Shown: positions 4,358 to 41,103 of the stretch, one piece after another
Layout of the letters: the number at the start of each line of letters is the position of its first letter
Position numbering within the stretch: the first letter of the stretch is position 1
Assembly: GCA_964647585.1 (NCBI GenBank)
Contig: CAZYGG010000012.1
Location: 4,762-68,761, forward strand
Reading direction: 5' to 3'
Source of the DNA: an uncultured Desulfobacterales bacterium
Lineage (GTDB): Bacteria; Desulfobacterota; Desulfobacteria; Desulfobacterales; CAJINA01
DNA: 64,000 nt
The notes under the pieces: generated by a model
Database searches by the model: none
Seen by the model: the letters and a program-made list of their open reading frames with translations, nothing else
Told to the model about the DNA's origin: nothing
Made by a program: the position numbers and the translations under genes

Positions 4358-6028
4358 TTAACGATCCCGCAATTCGCGGCGCAGCATCTTGCCTGTCGTG
4401 GTCTTGGGAATATCGTCTACAATTTCAACCACCCGCGGGTACTTGTACGCCGCCAGCCGCTCCTTGCAAAAAGCAATCAATTCATCGGGCGTTGTTTTTG
4501 CAAGGTGGTCCTCGCTCAAGGAGACAAAGGCCTTCACCGTCTCCCCGCGATAACTGTCCGGGACCCCCACCACCGCGGCTTCCCTGACCCCCGGGTGCTG
4601 ATAGAGGGCGTCCTCCACATCCCGGGGCCAGACCTTGAACCCCGATACATTGATAAGATCTTTTTTGCGGTCCACGATATAGCACCACCCGGCCGCATCG
4701 ATCTTGGCCACGTCCCCGGTGTAAAACCGGCCGTCCCGTATGGCTTTTGCGCTCTCTTCCGGCTTATTCCAGTACCCCGTGACCATGTTACCCCCCCGCA
4801 GCACCAGTTCGCCCTCTTCTCCGGGTGCGACCAGGGTATCCGGGTGGTCCACATCCGACACCCAGGCCTCGATGCCGGGGATAATCAAACCCACGGAAAG
4901 GGCCCCCGACTCTTCGTCGACCGGGCCATCCATTCCCAGGGGCGTAATGGTGGCCGGGGATGAGCTTTCGGTCAACCCGTAGACATTGTAGATGGTCAGT
5001 CCCATGGCGTCCTGGAACTTCTTGACCGTACCGGGCGAAACCGGTGCGCCGCCGCTGTAGGCTTTCACAAAATGGGAAATATCAAACGATTTGAGATCCG
5101 GGTGGTTGAGCAATGCGATATAGACCGTTATGGAAGCCACCGTGAAGGTGACCCGGCACTTTTCAATGAGCCGCAGGGCGTCTCCGGCGTCAAAACGGTT
5201 GAAAAGGACCATGGGGATGCCCAGGTGAAAAGCAATGGCTTGATGAGCCACAATGCCGGTGACATGAAACAGGGGCGCCACCGCTAGGATGGCATCCGAT
5301 GCGTCCAGCCGGGCGGCGGACGCGTATACGTAGCAATTGTGGTCGATATTCGCATGGGAAATCATGGCGCCCTTGGGCGGTCCGGTCGTGCCCGAGGTGT
5401 AAACCAGGTAAGCCAGGTCTGCAGGCCCGATTTCAACAGCCTCCAGGGGCCGGCCGGCGTTCTTCTCTACCAGCGCCATGAAATCCTGGGCCTGGTCCGG
5501 GGTCTCTTTACGGCAATCTTCAAGCTGACCGGGTATGGCGTCGCCGGTGCGTAATAAATCCAAAGGTGACGTGGTGATGATCGGCCGGTCGCCGGCGGCG
5601 GCCCGTACGGTCTTTTCAAAAAGCGCCTCCTCGCAGATAACCAGTTTTGAACCGCTGTCCTCCAGAAGATGAGCCAGGTCTTTAGTCGTGTACATGGGAT
5701 TGACCGGCAACACGACGCCGCCCCGCAGCCATACCGCCACCGATGCAATAACGGACTGGGGAGTATTCTGGAGCACCAGCATGACCCGGTCTCCCGCCCC
5801 GATGCCGTGGTCCGCCAGGGCGGCCGCCAGCGCGGCGGACATGTTTTCTACTTCTGCAAAGCTGTAGGCACTGTCAAAATATTGAATACAGACGTTCTCC
5901 GGCGAATTGGCGGCCACCCGCTTGAACTTTTCCAGAACCGTCTCGGCCGTTTCCGGAAAAGCTGGTAAAAACCAGTCTGGATACGTCTTTTCCCAGGGTT
6001 TGTCATCATAATACTCAGGCATATGCAT
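4358..6028 (-). CDS. AMP-dependent acyl-CoA synthetase (long-chain fatty acid--CoA ligase family)
   Basis: YTSGTTGPPKG, YGLTE, YTGD, DRKKDLI and catalytic GK motifs. Confidence 0.93.
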   Translation of the reverse strand: MHMPEYYDDKPWEKTYPDWFLPAFPETAETVLEKFKRVAANSPENVCIQYFDSAYSFAEVENMSAALAAALADHGIGAGDRVMLVLQNTPQSVIASVAVWLRGGVVLPVNPMYTTKDLAHLLEDSGSKLVICEEALFEKTVRAAAGDRPIITTSPLDLLRTGDAIPGQLEDCRKETPDQAQDFMALVEKNAGRPLEAVEIGPADLAYLVYTSGTTGPPKGAMISHANIDHNCYVYASAARLDASDAILAVAPLFHVTGIVAHQAIAFHLGIPMVLFNRFDAGDALRLIEKCRVTFTVASITVYIALLNHPDLKSFDISHFVKAYSGGAPVSPGTVKKFQDAMGLTIYNVYGLTESSSPATITPLGMDGPVDEESGALSVGLIIPGIEAWVSDVDHPDTLVAPGEEGELVLRGGNMVTGYWNKPEESAKAIRDGRFYTGDVAKIDAAGWCYIVDRKKDLINVSGFKVWPRDVEDALYQHPGVREAAVVGVPDSYRGETVKAFVSLSEDHLAKTTPDELIAFCKERLAAYKYPRVVEIVDDIPKTTTGKMLRRELRDR

Positions 6029-32652: not shown

Positions 32653-32787
32653 CACCCTCCCCCGGCCCCTCCCGTCAAGGGAGGGGAGAGAAGTCGCCGC
32701 CAACCGAAATAAAGCCGTAGGTCTCCTTCTTAGTGATCTTTTCTAAAAAAGCTCCCCTCCCCTTGCGGGAGGGGCCGGGGGAGGGGG
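32653..32787. repeat. Gene-less doublet of the 33-bp CCCTCCC palindrome (family D), inverted pair
   Basis: caccctcccccggcccctcccgtcaagggagggg (32653-32686) ... cccctccccttgcgggaggggccgggggaggggg (32754-32787). Confidence 0.9.
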
Positions 32788-32977
32788 CTGTCGCAAATAA
32801 GGCAAACGCCACTTTCAACAAACCGACCGCCTGCATCCACACATAAAAAGGGTCCACCGGAAATATTTCCGGTGGACCCTTCAACTTTTAGCACGTAACA
32901 AGTAATTCGTTCACTGTTCTGCATTTTTAAGGTTCTTGGTTTTAACCCTTGAACCCAGAACGTTGAACCTACCTGAT

Positions 32978-36694: not shown

Positions 36695-36854
36695 AAGACC
36701 CTCCAAATTGGGGACTTGTACCCTATCAAACCAATATTAAATCGAGTTGAGGCTTGACATACGCACTTCAATACATATTACTTTTATAAATAAATCATTT
36801 TTAGTAATGTAGCTGACGAGTTAATTGCGCCGGCACATAAAGGAGGAGAGACAA

Positions 36855-38756
36855 ATGGGTAAAACAATTGGAATAGATCTGGGTACGACCAATTCATGCA
36901 TCGCAATCATGGAGAACGGCGAGGCAAAAGTCATCACCAACCCCGAAGGCGGTCGCACGACGCCTTCCATCTTTGCAATGACCGACAGCGGTGAAAGGCT
37001 GGTGGGGCAGATTGCCAAACGCCAGGCGGTCACAAACCCGGCAAACACGGTTTCCGGCATAAAACGCCTGATCGGCCGCAAGTATGACGCGGCCGAAGTT
37101 CAGCAGGATGCCCGCACGCTGCCCTACGAAATCGAAAAGTCCGGCAACGGTGACGCCGGGGTGAACCTGAAGGGCAAGGTATACAGCCCTGCGGAGATTT
37201 CAGCCCAGATCCTGGGTGCCATTAAGAAAGCAGCTGAGGAATACCTGGGAGAACCGGTTACGGATGCCGTTATCACGGTCCCGGCCTACTTTTCAGACAG
37301 CCAGCGGCAGGCGACCAAGGACGCGGGGCGCATAGCGGGCCTGAACGTGCAGCGCATCATCAACGAACCGACGGCCGCGTCCCTGGCCTATGGCATGGAC
37401 AAGAACAAGGAGGAAAAAATCGCGGTTTTCGACCTGGGCGGCGGCACCTTCGATATTTCCATACTGGATATCGGTGATGGCGTTTTCGAAGTAAAGTCCA
37501 CCAACGGCGATACCCATCTCGGCGGCGAGGATTTTGACATGCGCCTGATCGACTACCTGGCGGATCAGTTTAAAAAAGACCACGCCATCGATCTGAAAGC
37601 CGATCCCATGGCCCTGCAAAGGCTCAAGGAAGCTGCTGAAAAGGCCAAAATGGAACTGTCCACCTCCATGGAGACCGATGTCAACCTTCCGTTTATAACT
37701 GCGGATGCCAGCGGGCCCAAACACCTCAATATCAAGATTACGCGCGCGCGCCTGGAAGCCCTGGTCCAGGACCTGCTCGACCGTCTGGAGGGCCCCTGTC
37801 TGACGGCTGTCAAGGATTCCGGCTACAGTGTGGGCGACATCGATGAAGTGATTCTCGTGGGCGGCATGACCCGCATGCCAGCGGTTCAGGAACGTGTGCA
37901 GAAAATCTTCAATAGAGCGCCGAACAAAGGTGTCAATCCGGATGAAGTCGTAGCCATGGGTGCGGCCATCCAGGGAGCAGTCCTCCAGGGGGATGTCAAC
38001 GATATCCTGTTGCTGGACGTCACCCCGCTGTCACTGGGCATTGAAACCCTGGGGGGTGTTATGACCCGCCTTATTGATAAGAATACCACTATCCCGGTGA
38101 ACAAAAGTGAAGTGTTTTCAACCGCCCAGGACAATCAACCGGCGGTCTCAGTGCATGTCCTCCAGGGGGAAAGAGAACTGGCAACTGACAACAAGACCCT
38201 GGGCCGGTTTGAACTGACCGGTATCACGCCGTCTCCGCGGGGTGTCCCGCAGATTGAAGTCACTTTTGATATCGATGCCAACGGGATTGTAAACGTATCC
38301 GCAAAAGACCAGGCCACCGGCCAGGCTCAGTCTATACGGATCACCGCCTCTAGCGGCTTGAGCCAGACAGAGATTGACCGGCTGGTAAATGAAGCCAAGA
38401 ACTACGCGGATGAAGACCGCCGGAAACGATCCCTGATCGATGCGCGCAATGAGGCGGACGGCCTGGTTTATACCACGGAAAAGACCCTGGCCGATTTCGG
38501 GGACCGGGTCGATCCGGAAAGCCGGGAACGCGCCCTGGCCGCGATTGCCCAGGTGAAACAGGCCATGGCCGGTGAGGATGCTGGACAGATCAAGGCACTG
38601 GCCAGCGAGCTTTCCGCAATCAACCAGACCCTTGCCCAGGCCGCCGCCGGCAAGCAGGCCGGGCCAGCTCCCGGAACGGCTCAAACGGCCCCCGGCAATC
38701 CGGGCGGCAATCCGGATGATGATATCATCGATGCTGAATACCAGGATGTGGCCTAA
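36855..38756 (+). CDS. dnaK: Molecular chaperone DnaK
   Basis: [42 protein letters not shown] and [15 protein letters not shown] motifs. Confidence 0.97.
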
Positions 38757-38794: not shown

Positions 38795-38810
38795 GATCAA
38801 CAGTGAAAAA

Positions 38811-39033
38811 TAGAAGTCATCTCAAAAAACGGATTTTGGTTCAAGGTCAAGGCGGGCGTTACATTCGAACCGGAGGTGCCAGCGAAGCCAATGCCTTGCG
38901 TGGTAAATACTCCAGTATTTCGAGGATTTGACCCGCCATACAATTGGCAATATGCCTTACGGGGGCGATTTACTCGCCAATTTAGCGTCCAACGCCGAGA
39001 TTGGGCCAAAAGACTTTTTTGAGATAGCTTCTA
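38811..39033. mobile_element. TA-ended MITE (family A, copy 3; longest)
   Basis: tagaagtcatctcaaaaaacggattttggttc...aaagactttttttgagatagcttcta with two internal expansions. Confidence 0.88.
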
Positions 39034-39044
39034 ACCTGTAACAG

Positions 39045-39170
39045 CCCCCTCCCCCGGCCCCTCCCGCGAGGGGAGGGGTGACTTATTGCGCAAGGCCTAT
39101 ATTACCCCGGTCATCTCAGCAGTAGCGAGACTATCCACTCTCCCTTGACGGGAGGGGCCGGGGGAGGGTG
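39045..39170. repeat. Family D doublet downstream of the DUF559 gene
   Basis: Forward copy 39045-39077, reverse copy 39138-39170; spacer homologous to that of 39665-39791. Confidence 0.9.
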
Positions 39171-39289
39171 AACTATCGCTTAGGCAAGCCTTCCGGACAA
39201 CCTTAAGCACCCCTTCCAGGTTTTCAAAAATCTCACAGCGTTCGGTGGTCATTCTCCCCTCCCTTGACGGGAGGGGTCGGGGGAGGGTG
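39171..39289 (-). repeat. Diverged tandem duplicate of the DUF559 3' end plus a family D copy
   Basis: FENLEGVLKVVRKACLSDSSPSPGPSRQGR (duplicate) versus FENLEGVLGVIRKACLRDISPSPDPSRQGR (gene); period 119 bp. Confidence 0.85.
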
Positions 39290-39635
39290 AAATGTCCCGC
39301 AAGCAAGCCTTCCGAATAACCCCAAGCACCCCTTCCAGGTTTTCAAAAACCTCGTTGTTCCAGAATCGTAGAACCATGAAACCATTGAGCTCCATAAAAT
39401 GGTCACGTTTTTTATCTTCCGGCTGACCTGCCGCGTGCTGCCCGCCGTCCAGTTCGACAATAAGCTTGTTCTCAAGACAGACAAAATCCACGATGTAGTT
39501 ATCAATCGGCTGTTGCCTTCTGAACTTATAGCCTTCCATTTGCCTGGCCCTGAGTCTTTGCCACAACCGGCTTTCAGCTTTTGTGGCCCCGCGTCGAAGC
39601 TTCTTTGCGTAGGGTGTGAGGTGGCTGTTTTTCAT
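39249..39635 (-). CDS. DUF559 (Vsr-like PD-(D/E)XK) endonuclease
   Basis: AKKLRR..T.AE..LW..LR, KFRRQQPI..YIVDFVC, IVELDGGQH, RD and VLRFWNNEV signature; last codons run into a family D palindrome. Confidence 0.93.
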   Translation of the reverse strand: MKNSHLTPYAKKLRRGATKAESRLWQRLRARQMEGYKFRRQQPIDNYIVDFVCLENKLIVELDGGQHAAGQPEDKKRDHFMELNGFMVLRFWNNEVFENLEGVLGVIRKACLRDISPSPDPSRQGRGE

Positions 39636-39664
39636 ATCAGAAACTTCTCCTTATTTTGGGCCTG

Positions 39665-39791
39665 CCCCCTCCCCCAACCCCTCCCGCGAGGGGAGGGGAG
39701 ACTTTCTGCAAAGGCTCATGTTGCCCCAGTCATCTCAGTAACCTCTTGACTATATACCCCCTCCCTTGACGGGAGGGGCTGGGGGAGGGTG
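39665..39791. repeat. Family D doublet upstream of the DUF559 gene
   Basis: Forward copy 39665-39698, reverse copy 39757-39791. Confidence 0.9.
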
Positions 39792-39912
39792 ACGCCCGCA
39801 ATAAAGACGTACTACCAGATCAGCATTACCGTTGGTAACAATGCCCCTCTTTTGACGAGCAGGGTCGGGAAAGGGTAAACCGCCGCTAAAAGCAGGCTCC
39901 CAGTTTCCGACC

Positions 39913-41103
39913 CTATTTTTCCATCAACTTGGAAATGGCCTGATCCAGGCCATCTAGGGAAAGTGGAAACATGGGATAAATCTGGCTGATGGCATTGATG
40001 GTGTGGGTGTAGCTCCACATTCGGGGGGGTACCGGATTGAGCCAGACGTTGTGGGGAAATGTTTCCGATAGAAATTTAAGCTGCTCGATGCTGGCCTTGC
40101 CGCTTCTCTCCTGCATGTAAATGGAGCCGTCCGCGGCCATTAACTCATAAGGCGCCATGCTGGCGTCTCCCACAAAGATGAGCCGGGTTTCGGGATCGTA
40201 TCTTGAGAATTCATTGACCCGCACCGGTTTTTTAATCCGGGTCGCGTCCCCCCACAGCGCATCATAAACAGTATTGTGAAAAAAGAATGTCTTCACATCT
40301 TTGAACTGGGCGCGGGCGTAATCAAAGAGCGTCTGGACCACGGGTATATAAGGATCCATGGACCATCCGCCGTTATCAATGGCGAGGATCACCTTAAGGC
40401 GGTCCTTGAGGCTGCGGGAAAAAACAATTTCGATCTCCCCACCGTTTTTCATCGTCCGGTAAATGGTTTCGTCAACATTTACCTGGTCCCGGGGTCCGCT
40501 GGGAATCAGGTTGCGCAGGCGCTTTAAAGCCTCGCCGATCATAGCCTGGGTCAAGGGCCCCTCTTGGGAATAATCTTTGTAGCGACGCTCCATGGCCACT
40601 TTTACCGCGGATTTATTCCTCGAAACGCCGCCCACGCGCATCCCGCCGGGATGATAGCCGGAATGCCCCACAGGGGATGTGCCGCCGGTCCCGATCCATT
40701 TGCTGCCCCCGTCGTGGCGGCCGTCCTGATCTTTCAGCCGTTCTTTAAAATAGTCGATGAGTTCTTCCGGGGAGAGTTTGCTGAGTTCGGATTCGTCCAT
40801 GCCCATGGCGTCCGCCAGGGTTTTCGGATCTTGCAGCCACTCTGCGAGCATGGCCCGGGCAATTTCATCCAGGATCATGTCGTCCGGCTCGGGCAGGTCC
40901 GCCCCTTCAAAATGGTGGGCAAAAACCTGGTCATACAGGTCAAAATAGCGTTCGCTTTTTACCAGGATCGTCCGGGAAGCGGTGTAAAAATCGTTCAAAG
41001 TCCGGACGAGTCCGCTCTTGAGCGCCCGGTGCAGGGTTAAAAAGGAGGTGGGGCTAACCGGTATACCCTGGTTTTTTAGCGTATAGAAAAAGTCTATAAA
41101 CAT
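39913..41103 (-). CDS. VWA-domain CoxE-like protein
   Basis: GSKWIGTGGTSPVGHSG, LAIDNGGWSM (MIDAS-like), FFFHN, FVGDASMAPYEL and VWLNP motifs. Confidence 0.88.
   Translation of the reverse strand: MFIDFFYTLKNQGIPVSPTSFLTLHRALKSGLVRTLNDFYTASRTILVKSERYFDLYDQVFAHHFEGADLPEPDDMILDEIARAMLAEWLQDPKTLADAMGMDESELSKLSPEELIDYFKERLKDQDGRHDGGSKWIGTGGTSPVGHSGYHPGGMRVGGVSRNKSAVKVAMERRYKDYSQEGPLTQAMIGEALKRLRNLIPSGPRDQVNVDETIYRTMKNGGEIEIVFSRSLKDRLKVILAIDNGGWSMDPYIPVVQTLFDYARAQFKDVKTFFFHNTVYDALWGDATRIKKPVRVNEFSRYDPETRLIFVGDASMAPYELMAADGSIYMQERSGKASIEQLKFLSETFPHNVWLNPVPPRMWSYTHTINAISQIYPMFPLSLDGLDQAISKLMEK

Follow-up and report, generated by a model that had tools for sequence, protein, structure and literature searches.

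Does a small nuclease gene that stands among a genome's own palindromic repeats make those repeats, live on them, or only lie between them? The question is raised by a locus in a 64,000-nucleotide stretch of DNA from an uncultured Desulfobacterales bacterium (C12:4762-68761, i.e., positions 4,762 to 68,761 of contig CAZYGG010000012.1, in a 4.15-Mb, 147-contig assembly, here genome G000). In this stretch, the whole of which we call the window, a gene for a Vsr-like nuclease of the DUF559 family lies between dnaK and a VWA/CoxE-like gene, framed by doublets of a folded repeat. A sequence-only reading of the window had proposed that the nuclease disperses the repeats, as RAYT transposases of the HUH type spread REPINs. 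Here, we describe a compact selfish cassette, in which the Vsr-like DUF559 gene, with its own ribosome-binding site, is enclosed by inverted arms of the triplex-motif type, and whose gene and ends spread horizontally together, whereas a nuclease that drives the dispersal of the repeats finds only partial support. For the mechanism, we infer homing-like copying between repeat-bearing sites, which we prefer to the alternatives weighed below.

The nuclease gene and its inverted ends

The genes dnaK (36825-38756, +) and VWA/CoxE-like (39913-41103, -) enclose a spacer of 1156 bp, within which the earlier observation of a nuclease gene framed by repeat doublets is confirmed (Table 1). The gene is intact, and its 128-aa product matches PF04480 over residues 6-111 (model positions 3-108 of 109) at 142.6 bits against a cut-off of 20.6 (E 5e-42), shares ~50% identity with a solved Neisseria "endonuclease-like protein" (3HRL, a structural-genomics entry; E 5.5e-29), and retains D50, E61, D63, H67, R90, and N93, which at least 90% of an alignment of 82 sequences share, E. 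coli YcjD included. DUF559 is the sole domain matched in this protein, with no separate NUMOD or helix-turn-helix (HTH) DNA-binding domain. Vsr, DUF559, and 3R3P have been grouped in one catalytic fold clade that includes a repair enzyme (PMC3424549), and the Vsr-fold protein I-Bth0305I is a proven homing enzyme that makes staggered double-strand cuts (PMC3424549, PMC3239194). Our literature search yielded no biochemical study of any small DUF559 protein.

The two arms nearest the gene, D upstream and C downstream, are mutually inverted (35 nt, 89% complementary) and enclose the gene together with its AGGAG ribosome-binding site. Arm D is also a covariance-model match (C12:44423-44462), and arm C runs into the coding sequence, such that the last 13 codons of the gene are the arm itself, translated as SPSPDPSRQGRGE; this is the fifth repeat copy that had been read at the end of the protein. 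The flanking doublets, described earlier as direct repeats of one another, were recovered as 129-bp units (A-B and D-E) with arms 89-90% identical and a spacer 72% identical, the latter sharing gtcatctcag...gactat, and a gene-less doublet was found where a solo doublet had been placed at 32653. The consensus with a GTCAA loop that had been proposed holds for arms B, C, and E, while arms A and D have a GCGA loop. Searched as a 32-mer with at most 3 mismatches, the repeat gave 4 matches in the window vs 0.00 expected (100 shuffles). Both 129-bp units fold as long hairpins of single-stranded DNA (left unit -43.2 kcal/mol, z -6.5; right unit -35.2 kcal/mol, z -4.6) in ViennaRNA, which models Watson-Crick pairs only.

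Running into arm B is the remnant of a second DUF559 copy, recognized as a 95-nt repeat family 87% identical to the 3' end of the gene (81% over 32 aa; E 1e-10). Scanning the locus for promoter and terminator consensus sequences gave no match, an Rfam search gave only generic hairpin matches below the gathering score, and the PADLOC defence models gave only a 13.6-bit match to DpdF. With no Rfam match at the gathering score and a protein that is a bare 128-aa nuclease domain, we set aside the suggestion that a transcribed doublet serves the enzyme as an RNA scaffold or guide. Between the dnaK terminator and arm A, at 38805-39040, lies an unrelated element resembling a miniature inverted-repeat transposable element (MITE), which has 19-bp inverted ends (TAGAAGTCATCTCAAAAAA / TTTTTTGAGATAGCTTCTA) and for which blastn found 177 matching pieces genome-wide.

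Table 1. Features of the cassette, its surroundings in the window, and related in-frame insertions (window positions unless a locus prefix is given)
Feature	Position	Strand	Remarks
DUF559 (Vsr-like PD-(D/E)XK) nuclease gene	39249..39635	-	128 aa, intact; PF04480, 3HRL match, conserved residues
Shine-Dalgarno-like AGGAG	39647..39651	-	11 nt ahead of ATG, within left inverted repeat boundary; by sequence inspection
Left-hand 129-bp doublet (A, spacer, B)	39044..39172		Direct repeat of right-hand unit
Arm A	39044-39081		Outer arm of left-hand doublet; GCGA loop
Arm B	39140-39172		Inner arm of left-hand doublet; GTCAA-loop consensus
Remnant of second DUF559 copy	39172..39237	-	3' end only (residues ~95-115), runs into arm B
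Arm C, downstream terminal inverted repeat	39251..39290		Covers gene 3' end and stop codon; GTCAA-loop consensus
Arm D, upstream terminal inverted repeat	39664..39701		Hairpin CCCCTCCC-GCGA-GGGGAGGG plus third arm
Spacer and arm E	39702..39792 (arm E 39753-39792)		With arm D, right-hand 129-bp doublet
Decayed sixth arm	39839..39878		Orientation as arm E; 63% to reference
Gene-less doublet	32653..32790 (arms 32655-32686, +; 32754-32785, -)		D-type and C-type arms, different spacer
In-frame DUF559 insertion, LeuRS	L067:1873-5490		
In-frame DUF559 insertion, IleRS	L027:1420-4755		
In-frame DUF559 insertion, IleRS	L079:1018-4818		
In-frame DUF559 insertion, PriA	L046:2251-4974		
In-frame DUF559 insertion, HsdS	L011:1942-4113		Type I HsdS subunit

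Repeat class and gene-less doublets

Intrastrand triplex motifs (TM, TMECO; BoxC/PIT) are widespread, G/C-rich repeats with the E. coli consensus CCCTCNCCC-N3-6-GGGNGAGGG-N3-GGGNGAGGG (Holder et al. 2015, PMC4666352). In that study, PIT elements had no promoter or terminator activity, triplex-motif loci in E. coli were prone to rearrangement, and mobility functions were never found beside triplex motifs; its main text contains neither "endonuclease" nor "ycjD" nor DUF559 (PMC4666352). Compared with this consensus, the window arms, which read CCCCTCCC-TTGAC-GGGAGGGG-NN-GGGGGAGGG, have the same architecture, but the arm word and the linker length differ and the published sequence is not matched. 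Among 58 arms extracted by a stem finder from around homologous DUF559 genes of many genomes, the hairpin of 9 pairs has 90.2% of its cells paired, and stem positions 9/25 and 11/23 covary, switching between C-G and T-A. Of 62 informative arms, 44 are better read with the third arm as a mirror image of the purine one (A or T opposite A) and 3 with a direct reading, and in the window arms the mirror reading scores 8 of 8.

With its hairpin and mirrored third arm, the repeat thus belongs to the BoxC/PIT/triplex-motif class, and the same architecture with a different word makes it a sister variant of that class, not the E. coli family itself. As in BoxC/PIT/TM, a pyrimidine arm, a 4-5 nt loop, a purine arm, a short linker, and a mirrored purine-rich arm follow one another, and the repeats are G/C-rich, intergenic, multi-copy, and found in many phyla at loci that vary between close relatives. 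Unlike in E. coli BoxC, the arms here are GGGAGGGG / GGGGGAGGG with a 2-nt linker, and unlike BoxC/PIT as published, the motifs here are the inverted ends of a nuclease gene and are paired as doublets.

The genome has ~84 arm sites, among which 37 are C-type, 25 belong to a "variant 2," 17 belong to a third subfamily, and 5 are D-type (other tallies: 68 by nhmmer, 67 by the covariance model). The commonest doublet (17 copies) joins an inverted variant 2 through a ~48-nt spacer to a C-type arm, with its hairpins outside and thus oriented like the arms that enclose the gene, and the opposite arrangement, that of A-B and D-E, occurs in 5 copies. Doublet arms are near-identical among copies, whereas the spacers are strongly divergent. 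The assembly holds one full DUF559 gene and two remnants, one beside arm B and the other on contig C138, where the same doublet lies directly upstream, residues 49-69 (perhaps from ~42) are kept with the 5' end abutting the arm, and the remnant is then interrupted by an unrelated MITE. The interrupting sequence belongs to a third repeat family, CGTAGGTTGGGTTAAGCG...AACCCAACCTACG (L089:250-336, ~87 bp, 20 blastn hits), members of which often directly adjoin triplex-motif arms.

The 17 common doublets look, in sequence, like cassette ends that have no gene. The closest homologs (Syntrophus L001, Nitrospirae L007, Desulfobacteraceae L008, and Syntrophaceae L034) carry an unequal arm pair, CCCCC-TTGAC-GGGGG(AGG) with the third arm GGGTGGGGGTG on the left and CACCCTCCCC..CCCCTCCC-GTCAA-GGGAGGGG on the right, and it is because exactly this pair forms the arms of the common doublets that we read these as gene-less cassette ends. 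Arm C is of the right-arm type of the same four loci, and arm D of the intact gene is near-identical to the left arm of another Nitrospirae locus (L002), so that arm types travel with the gene between phyla. The full gene, the C138 copy, and the doublets form a series of deletions with the left arm as its fixed end. Moreover, alignment of the doublet spacers with the final 36 nt of the gene gives a mean score of 6.16, compared to 4.13 +/- 0.40 in shuffles, though the doublet copies are non-independent and this alignment is suggestive only; one doublet copy gave a tblastn match to the gene.

Other mobile sequences in the genome also touch the arms or were considered as their source. An insertion sequence (IS) with inverted ends CGTGCAA..., whose body is missing from the assembly, was seen at 16 contig ends (L089:1-54 on C138, and ends of C5, C6, C10, C21, C54, C71, C79, C86, C95, C100, C116, and C118). 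It abuts a triplex-motif arm at 12-13 of the 16, mostly at one fixed position in the variant-2 third arm and with an apparent 4-bp duplication, CACC, and appears to be a repeat-targeting IS. The sole match to Y1_Tnp (PF01797) in the genome is a 324-aa frame at C38:19088-20062 with no arm within 400 bp, and a RAYT was rejected as the driver since this one Y1_Tnp-like gene is not near any arm.

Mobility and the gene-repeat link beyond this genome

The two available congeners provide a series of states for the insertion site. DUF559 is absent from both (G001 and G002) by protein search and by Pfam profile, and the VWA gene is present in both at 92-93% identity. The dnaK-VWA spacer, 1156 bp here, measures ~250 bp in G001, where it holds a single doublet, and ~130 bp in G002, where it has a terminator-like hairpin but is free of repeats, such that an empty site, looked for as a sign of insertion, exists in the latter. 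Repeats of the exact type number 45 here, mostly without mismatch, vs 13 and 4 in the gene-less congeners, and a reversed-pattern control gave 0. Judged from these sequences, the cassette entered the dnaK-VWA spacer after the split from the congeners, and the gene-bearing form was copied within this genome, given one intact gene and two decayed remnants. The congeners are ~75-80% identical in the flanking DNA, and the insertion borders are not legible to the base.

Flanking repeats were then compared across 80 related loci, with proteins 42-60% identical to the window protein, from Desulfobacterota, Nitrospirota, Proteobacteria, Chloroflexota, Planctomycetota, Bacteroidota, Melainabacteria, and others. 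The flank score, i.e., that of the best inverted repeat pairing a 190-nt segment around the start with a second 190-nt segment past domain residue 111, has a median of 23.5 vs 8 in windows displaced by 700 bp, and lies above the control's 95th percentile at 61 of 74 loci, far beyond a background rate of repeats. Upstream, the arm stops 0-50 nt short of the start; downstream, it begins within ~20 nt of the domain end (residue 111), and the C-terminal tails of homologs are translated arms (e.g., PLNPLPSREGK and PSPPNPPLEGEG). Flanking inverted arms also occur in relatives of the order, with stems shrunk to CCCC/GGGG in a low-GC genome; in G092, the gene (C12:5592-5894) lies between covariance-model hits at 5531-5570(+) and 5926-5965(-). 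The co-variation of repeat and protein that the sequence-only reading had anticipated was also found (Mantel r 0.27, p 5e-4, for arm distance against protein distance), though shared descent could also yield such a correlation.

In E. coli, the protein of ycjD ends ...RRSPSP in a decayed arm, with a BoxC element ~200 bp downstream. The K-12 locus (L094:5240-5420) reads ycjD, a decayed duplicate of its last ~50 nt, and then an intact BoxC (CCCCTCGCCCCTCTGGGGAGAGGGTTAGGGTGAGGGG). A duplicated gene 3' end was considered as a general signature and rejected, as it is present in the window and at E. coli ycjD only, and at none of 76 other loci. Downstream of the DUF559 gene of Legionella dresdenensis (L005:3458-3765), five further copies of the same hairpin (CCCTCTCCCGTACCGGGAGAGGG) form a small array with a spacing of ~70-72 bp.

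The cassette is mobile, as indicated by relatives that lie in frame inside conserved genes: frames of 724-1267 aa, assigned by Pfam to a leucyl-tRNA synthetase (LeuRS), two isoleucyl-tRNA synthetases (IleRS), PriA, and HsdS, hold a complete in-frame DUF559 domain at 50-59% identity (Table 1). Several genomes of the order have 3-4 DUF559 copies. Plasmids and phages were rejected as vehicles, with homologs rare on the former (43 of 72,556 records) and almost absent from the latter (2 of 50,697 records).

To relate gene and repeat at the level of genomes, the arm covariance model and PF04480 were searched in the same 201 genomes of the order, each at least 90% complete, taking E <= 1e-20 as a strong DUF559 match and at least 10 motif hits as repeat-rich, with motif counts limited to 32 scored candidates. 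Strong DUF559 matches were found in 18 of 34 repeat-rich genomes and in 15 of the 167 with fewer than 10 hits (odds ratio 11.4, Fisher p 3e-8, kinship ignored), and a tally by genus, made by hand, gave an odds ratio of 12 (p 3e-6). Hence, the link holds at the genome level and not only in the flanks. Motifs were detectable in 29 of the 33 gene-bearing genomes, and the other 4 may have weak motif variants like those of G028. Within genera g5, g6, g40, and g73, repeats are kept in species with and without the gene.

Proposed homing between repeats and its rivals

Several known systems resemble this cassette in part. As in REPIN/RAYT (Bertels and Rainey 2011, PMC3116915), a single enzyme gene has palindromic repeats of its own genome on either side, and inverted doublets with a variable spacer, able to form long hairpins of single-stranded DNA, appear to be the replicating unit. 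Unlike in REPIN/RAYT, the enzyme is a PD-(D/E)XK hydrolase and not an HUH (Y1) tyrosine transposase, and a third, mirrored arm is part of the repeat. The gene also exists in decayed copies and is missing from congeners, and many repeat-rich genomes are gene-less. With Vsr-like (EDxHD) homing endonucleases, e.g., I-Bth0305I (PMC3239194; PMC2677866), the cassette shares a catalytic fold clade, a selfish nuclease gene polymorphic for presence and absence, and relatives inside conserved genes. Unlike those endonucleases, it has no intron or intein and no NUMOD/HTH DNA-binding domain, it has inverted repeat ends of its own and scattered gene-less derivatives, and its in-frame copies appear to be translated through instead of spliced.

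The cassette is also reminiscent of IS/MITE pairs, with which it shares terminal inverted repeats, gene-less copies that have both ends and some subterminal sequence in common, and a one-end-anchored deletion series (full gene, the C138 copy minus ~42-48 codons, doublets). Unlike IS/MITE pairs, it encodes no DDE, HUH, or serine transposase and its arms are folded three-part motifs, and no target-site duplication is demonstrable here, with the congeners' intergenic DNA too diverged. Rickettsia palindromic elements are palindromic selfish DNA tolerated in frame inside protein-coding genes, and carry no gene, unlike the in-frame insert here, which encodes a whole nuclease domain.

Taken together, a selfish cassette with homing-like copying between repeat-bearing sites seems to us evenly poised between right and wrong, a judgement that already counts the well-supported descriptive part. 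The nuclease would recognize an arm or doublet and nick or cut there, as is suggested by a fold clade that holds Vsr and the homing enzyme I-Bth0305I. The break would be repaired from a gene-bearing copy through the ~35-40-bp arms, by which the gene would be copied into other repeat-bearing sites, and left-arm-anchored deletions would regenerate gene-less doublets. In-frame copies could arise if a gene-less palindrome had entered the host gene first. Such homing between repeats would account for the flanking arms, for the dnaK-VWA site in its three states, and for a nesting of gene and repeats that is the reverse of that in RAYT/REPIN.

A number of points weigh against this reading. None of the DUF559 proteins has a known activity, cut site, or target duplication, and the 128-aa protein is without the separate DNA-binding domain of I-Bth0305I. 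Homing does not account for how arms reach new sites, and one intact gene beside 17 empty doublets fits it uneasily, which suggests that intragenomic homing is inefficient at best. The intact gene has a D-type left arm, unlike the common doublets, which would therefore derive from a relative of the intact copy and not from the intact copy itself. The association tests ignore phylogeny, and each cassette itself adds two motif hits, while 16 of the 34 repeat-rich genomes have no DUF559, from which it follows that the repeats do not depend on the gene. For example, G006 (97% complete) has 58 motif hits, many with identical scores, and no DUF559; its motifs lie inside a near-identical ~150-bp MITE with its own outer inverted repeats GAGCCAATTGCAAAAG (L109-L124), and were thus probably moved by an ordinary transposase. 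Shorter variants of this MITE keep the outer ends and have only one motif. Finally, the gene is syntenic across genera of Xanthomonadales, ahead of a biotin-carboxylase-like gene, and can therefore be stably inherited. As the arms spread without the gene too, the nuclease would be a partner or parasite of the repeats, and not their obligatory motor.

The proposal of the sequence-only reading, REP dispersal by a non-HUH nuclease, fared unevenly: the REPIN-like layout stands (one gene, ~84 arm sites, 17 + 5 doublets, hairpins), but the repeats are independent of the gene in the 16 DUF559-less genomes and in the MITE of G006. In its strongest form, a true REPIN/RAYT analogue, a single-copy DUF559 acting in trans would excise and re-insert or copy doublets and drive the whole family. 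This would suit one intact gene among doublets that fold as long single-stranded hairpins, the 45 mostly exact copies against 13 and 4 in congeners without the gene, the odds ratio of 11.4 over 201 genomes, and arms far better conserved than spacers, as in REPINs. We nevertheless regard it as unlikely, given the 16 repeat-rich genomes without DUF559, including G006 (58 copies) and G014 (144 copies, with only a DUF559 gene fragment), congeners that keep the repeats without the gene, unlike vertically kept RAYTs, and PD-(D/E)XK hydrolases that have no known strand-transfer chemistry. Since the nesting is reversed relative to RAYT/REPIN, a gene living on a repeat family fits better than a gene making the repeats.

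Alternatively, the arms may be moved by a host process or by an unrelated transposase in trans, with DUF559 as trapped cargo or a landing place and no enzymatic link between the two. Repeats that thrive without the gene, motifs carried by a MITE with outer inverted repeats (GAGCCAATTGCAAAAG) in G006, a dnaK-VWA spacer that serves as a dump for several repeat families, and an IS that also targets the arms are all in keeping with this passenger status. To it we assign a low probability, because the same gene family sits in the same register across phyla (0-50 nt before the start; within ~20 nt of residue 111), arm types travel with the gene between phyla (arm D like that of Nitrospirae L002, doublet arms like those of Syntrophus, Nitrospirae, and Desulfobacteraceae cassettes), no second kind of recurrent cargo was observed, and the genome's only Y1-transposase-like gene has no arms within 400 bp. 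A host function, in which a repair or processing nuclease resolves repeat hairpins or triplexes, or the arms make the gene an invertible switch and the linkage is regulatory, seems to us improbable. It would draw on the repair enzyme in the Vsr clade (PMC3424549), the rearrangement-prone triplex-motif loci of E. coli (PMC4666352), the enrichment of DUF559 among predicted inversion targets (PMC9881135), and the synteny in Xanthomonadales, but the gene has a patchy distribution within genera and neither congener carries it, a housekeeping role is hard to square with in-frame insertions in essential genes, this genome also contains decayed remnants, there is no neighbouring recombinase gene, and PIT elements are without promoter or terminator activity (PMC4666352).

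Part of this picture is already in print, namely the DUF559 fold assignment, the Vsr-like homing family, the BoxC/PIT/triplex-motif repeats, and REPIN/RAYT. A literature search on DUF559 with repeats, ycjD, and Vsr-like homing endonucleases found no printed description joining the gene to repeats, and the only printed hint of a gene-repeat link found is a table row that gives an odds ratio of 14.3 for the enrichment of a DUF559 domain-containing protein among predicted inversion targets (PMC9881135). To these, the locus adds a series of states in sister species, an unequal arm pair that matches between doublets and cassettes, a test of the mirror arm, an association over 201 genomes that has 16 exceptions, and the counter-example of G006. 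This genome is an unusually clean case, with one intact gene, remnants, and gene-less doublets, and with sisters that show an empty and a doublet-only site.

For the very large DUF559/YcjD family, a structure has been solved and no function is known, and BoxC/PIT/triplex-motif repeats, known since the 1990s, present in hundreds of genomes, and tied to genome instability, had no mobility gene beside them in the last detailed study. More broadly, DUF559 proteins might be the cognate nucleases of these repeats throughout bacteria, forming transposase-free mobile elements that copy between repeat sites, shed doublets, and can live in frame in essential genes, a generalization that we hold to be doubtful but worth stating for what it would mean. 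If true, the repeats would gain a partner enzyme and the enzyme family a substrate, the unspliced nuclease domains in tRNA synthetases and PriA would be explained, and a hydrolytic nuclease with structured DNA ends would represent a new design of selfish element.

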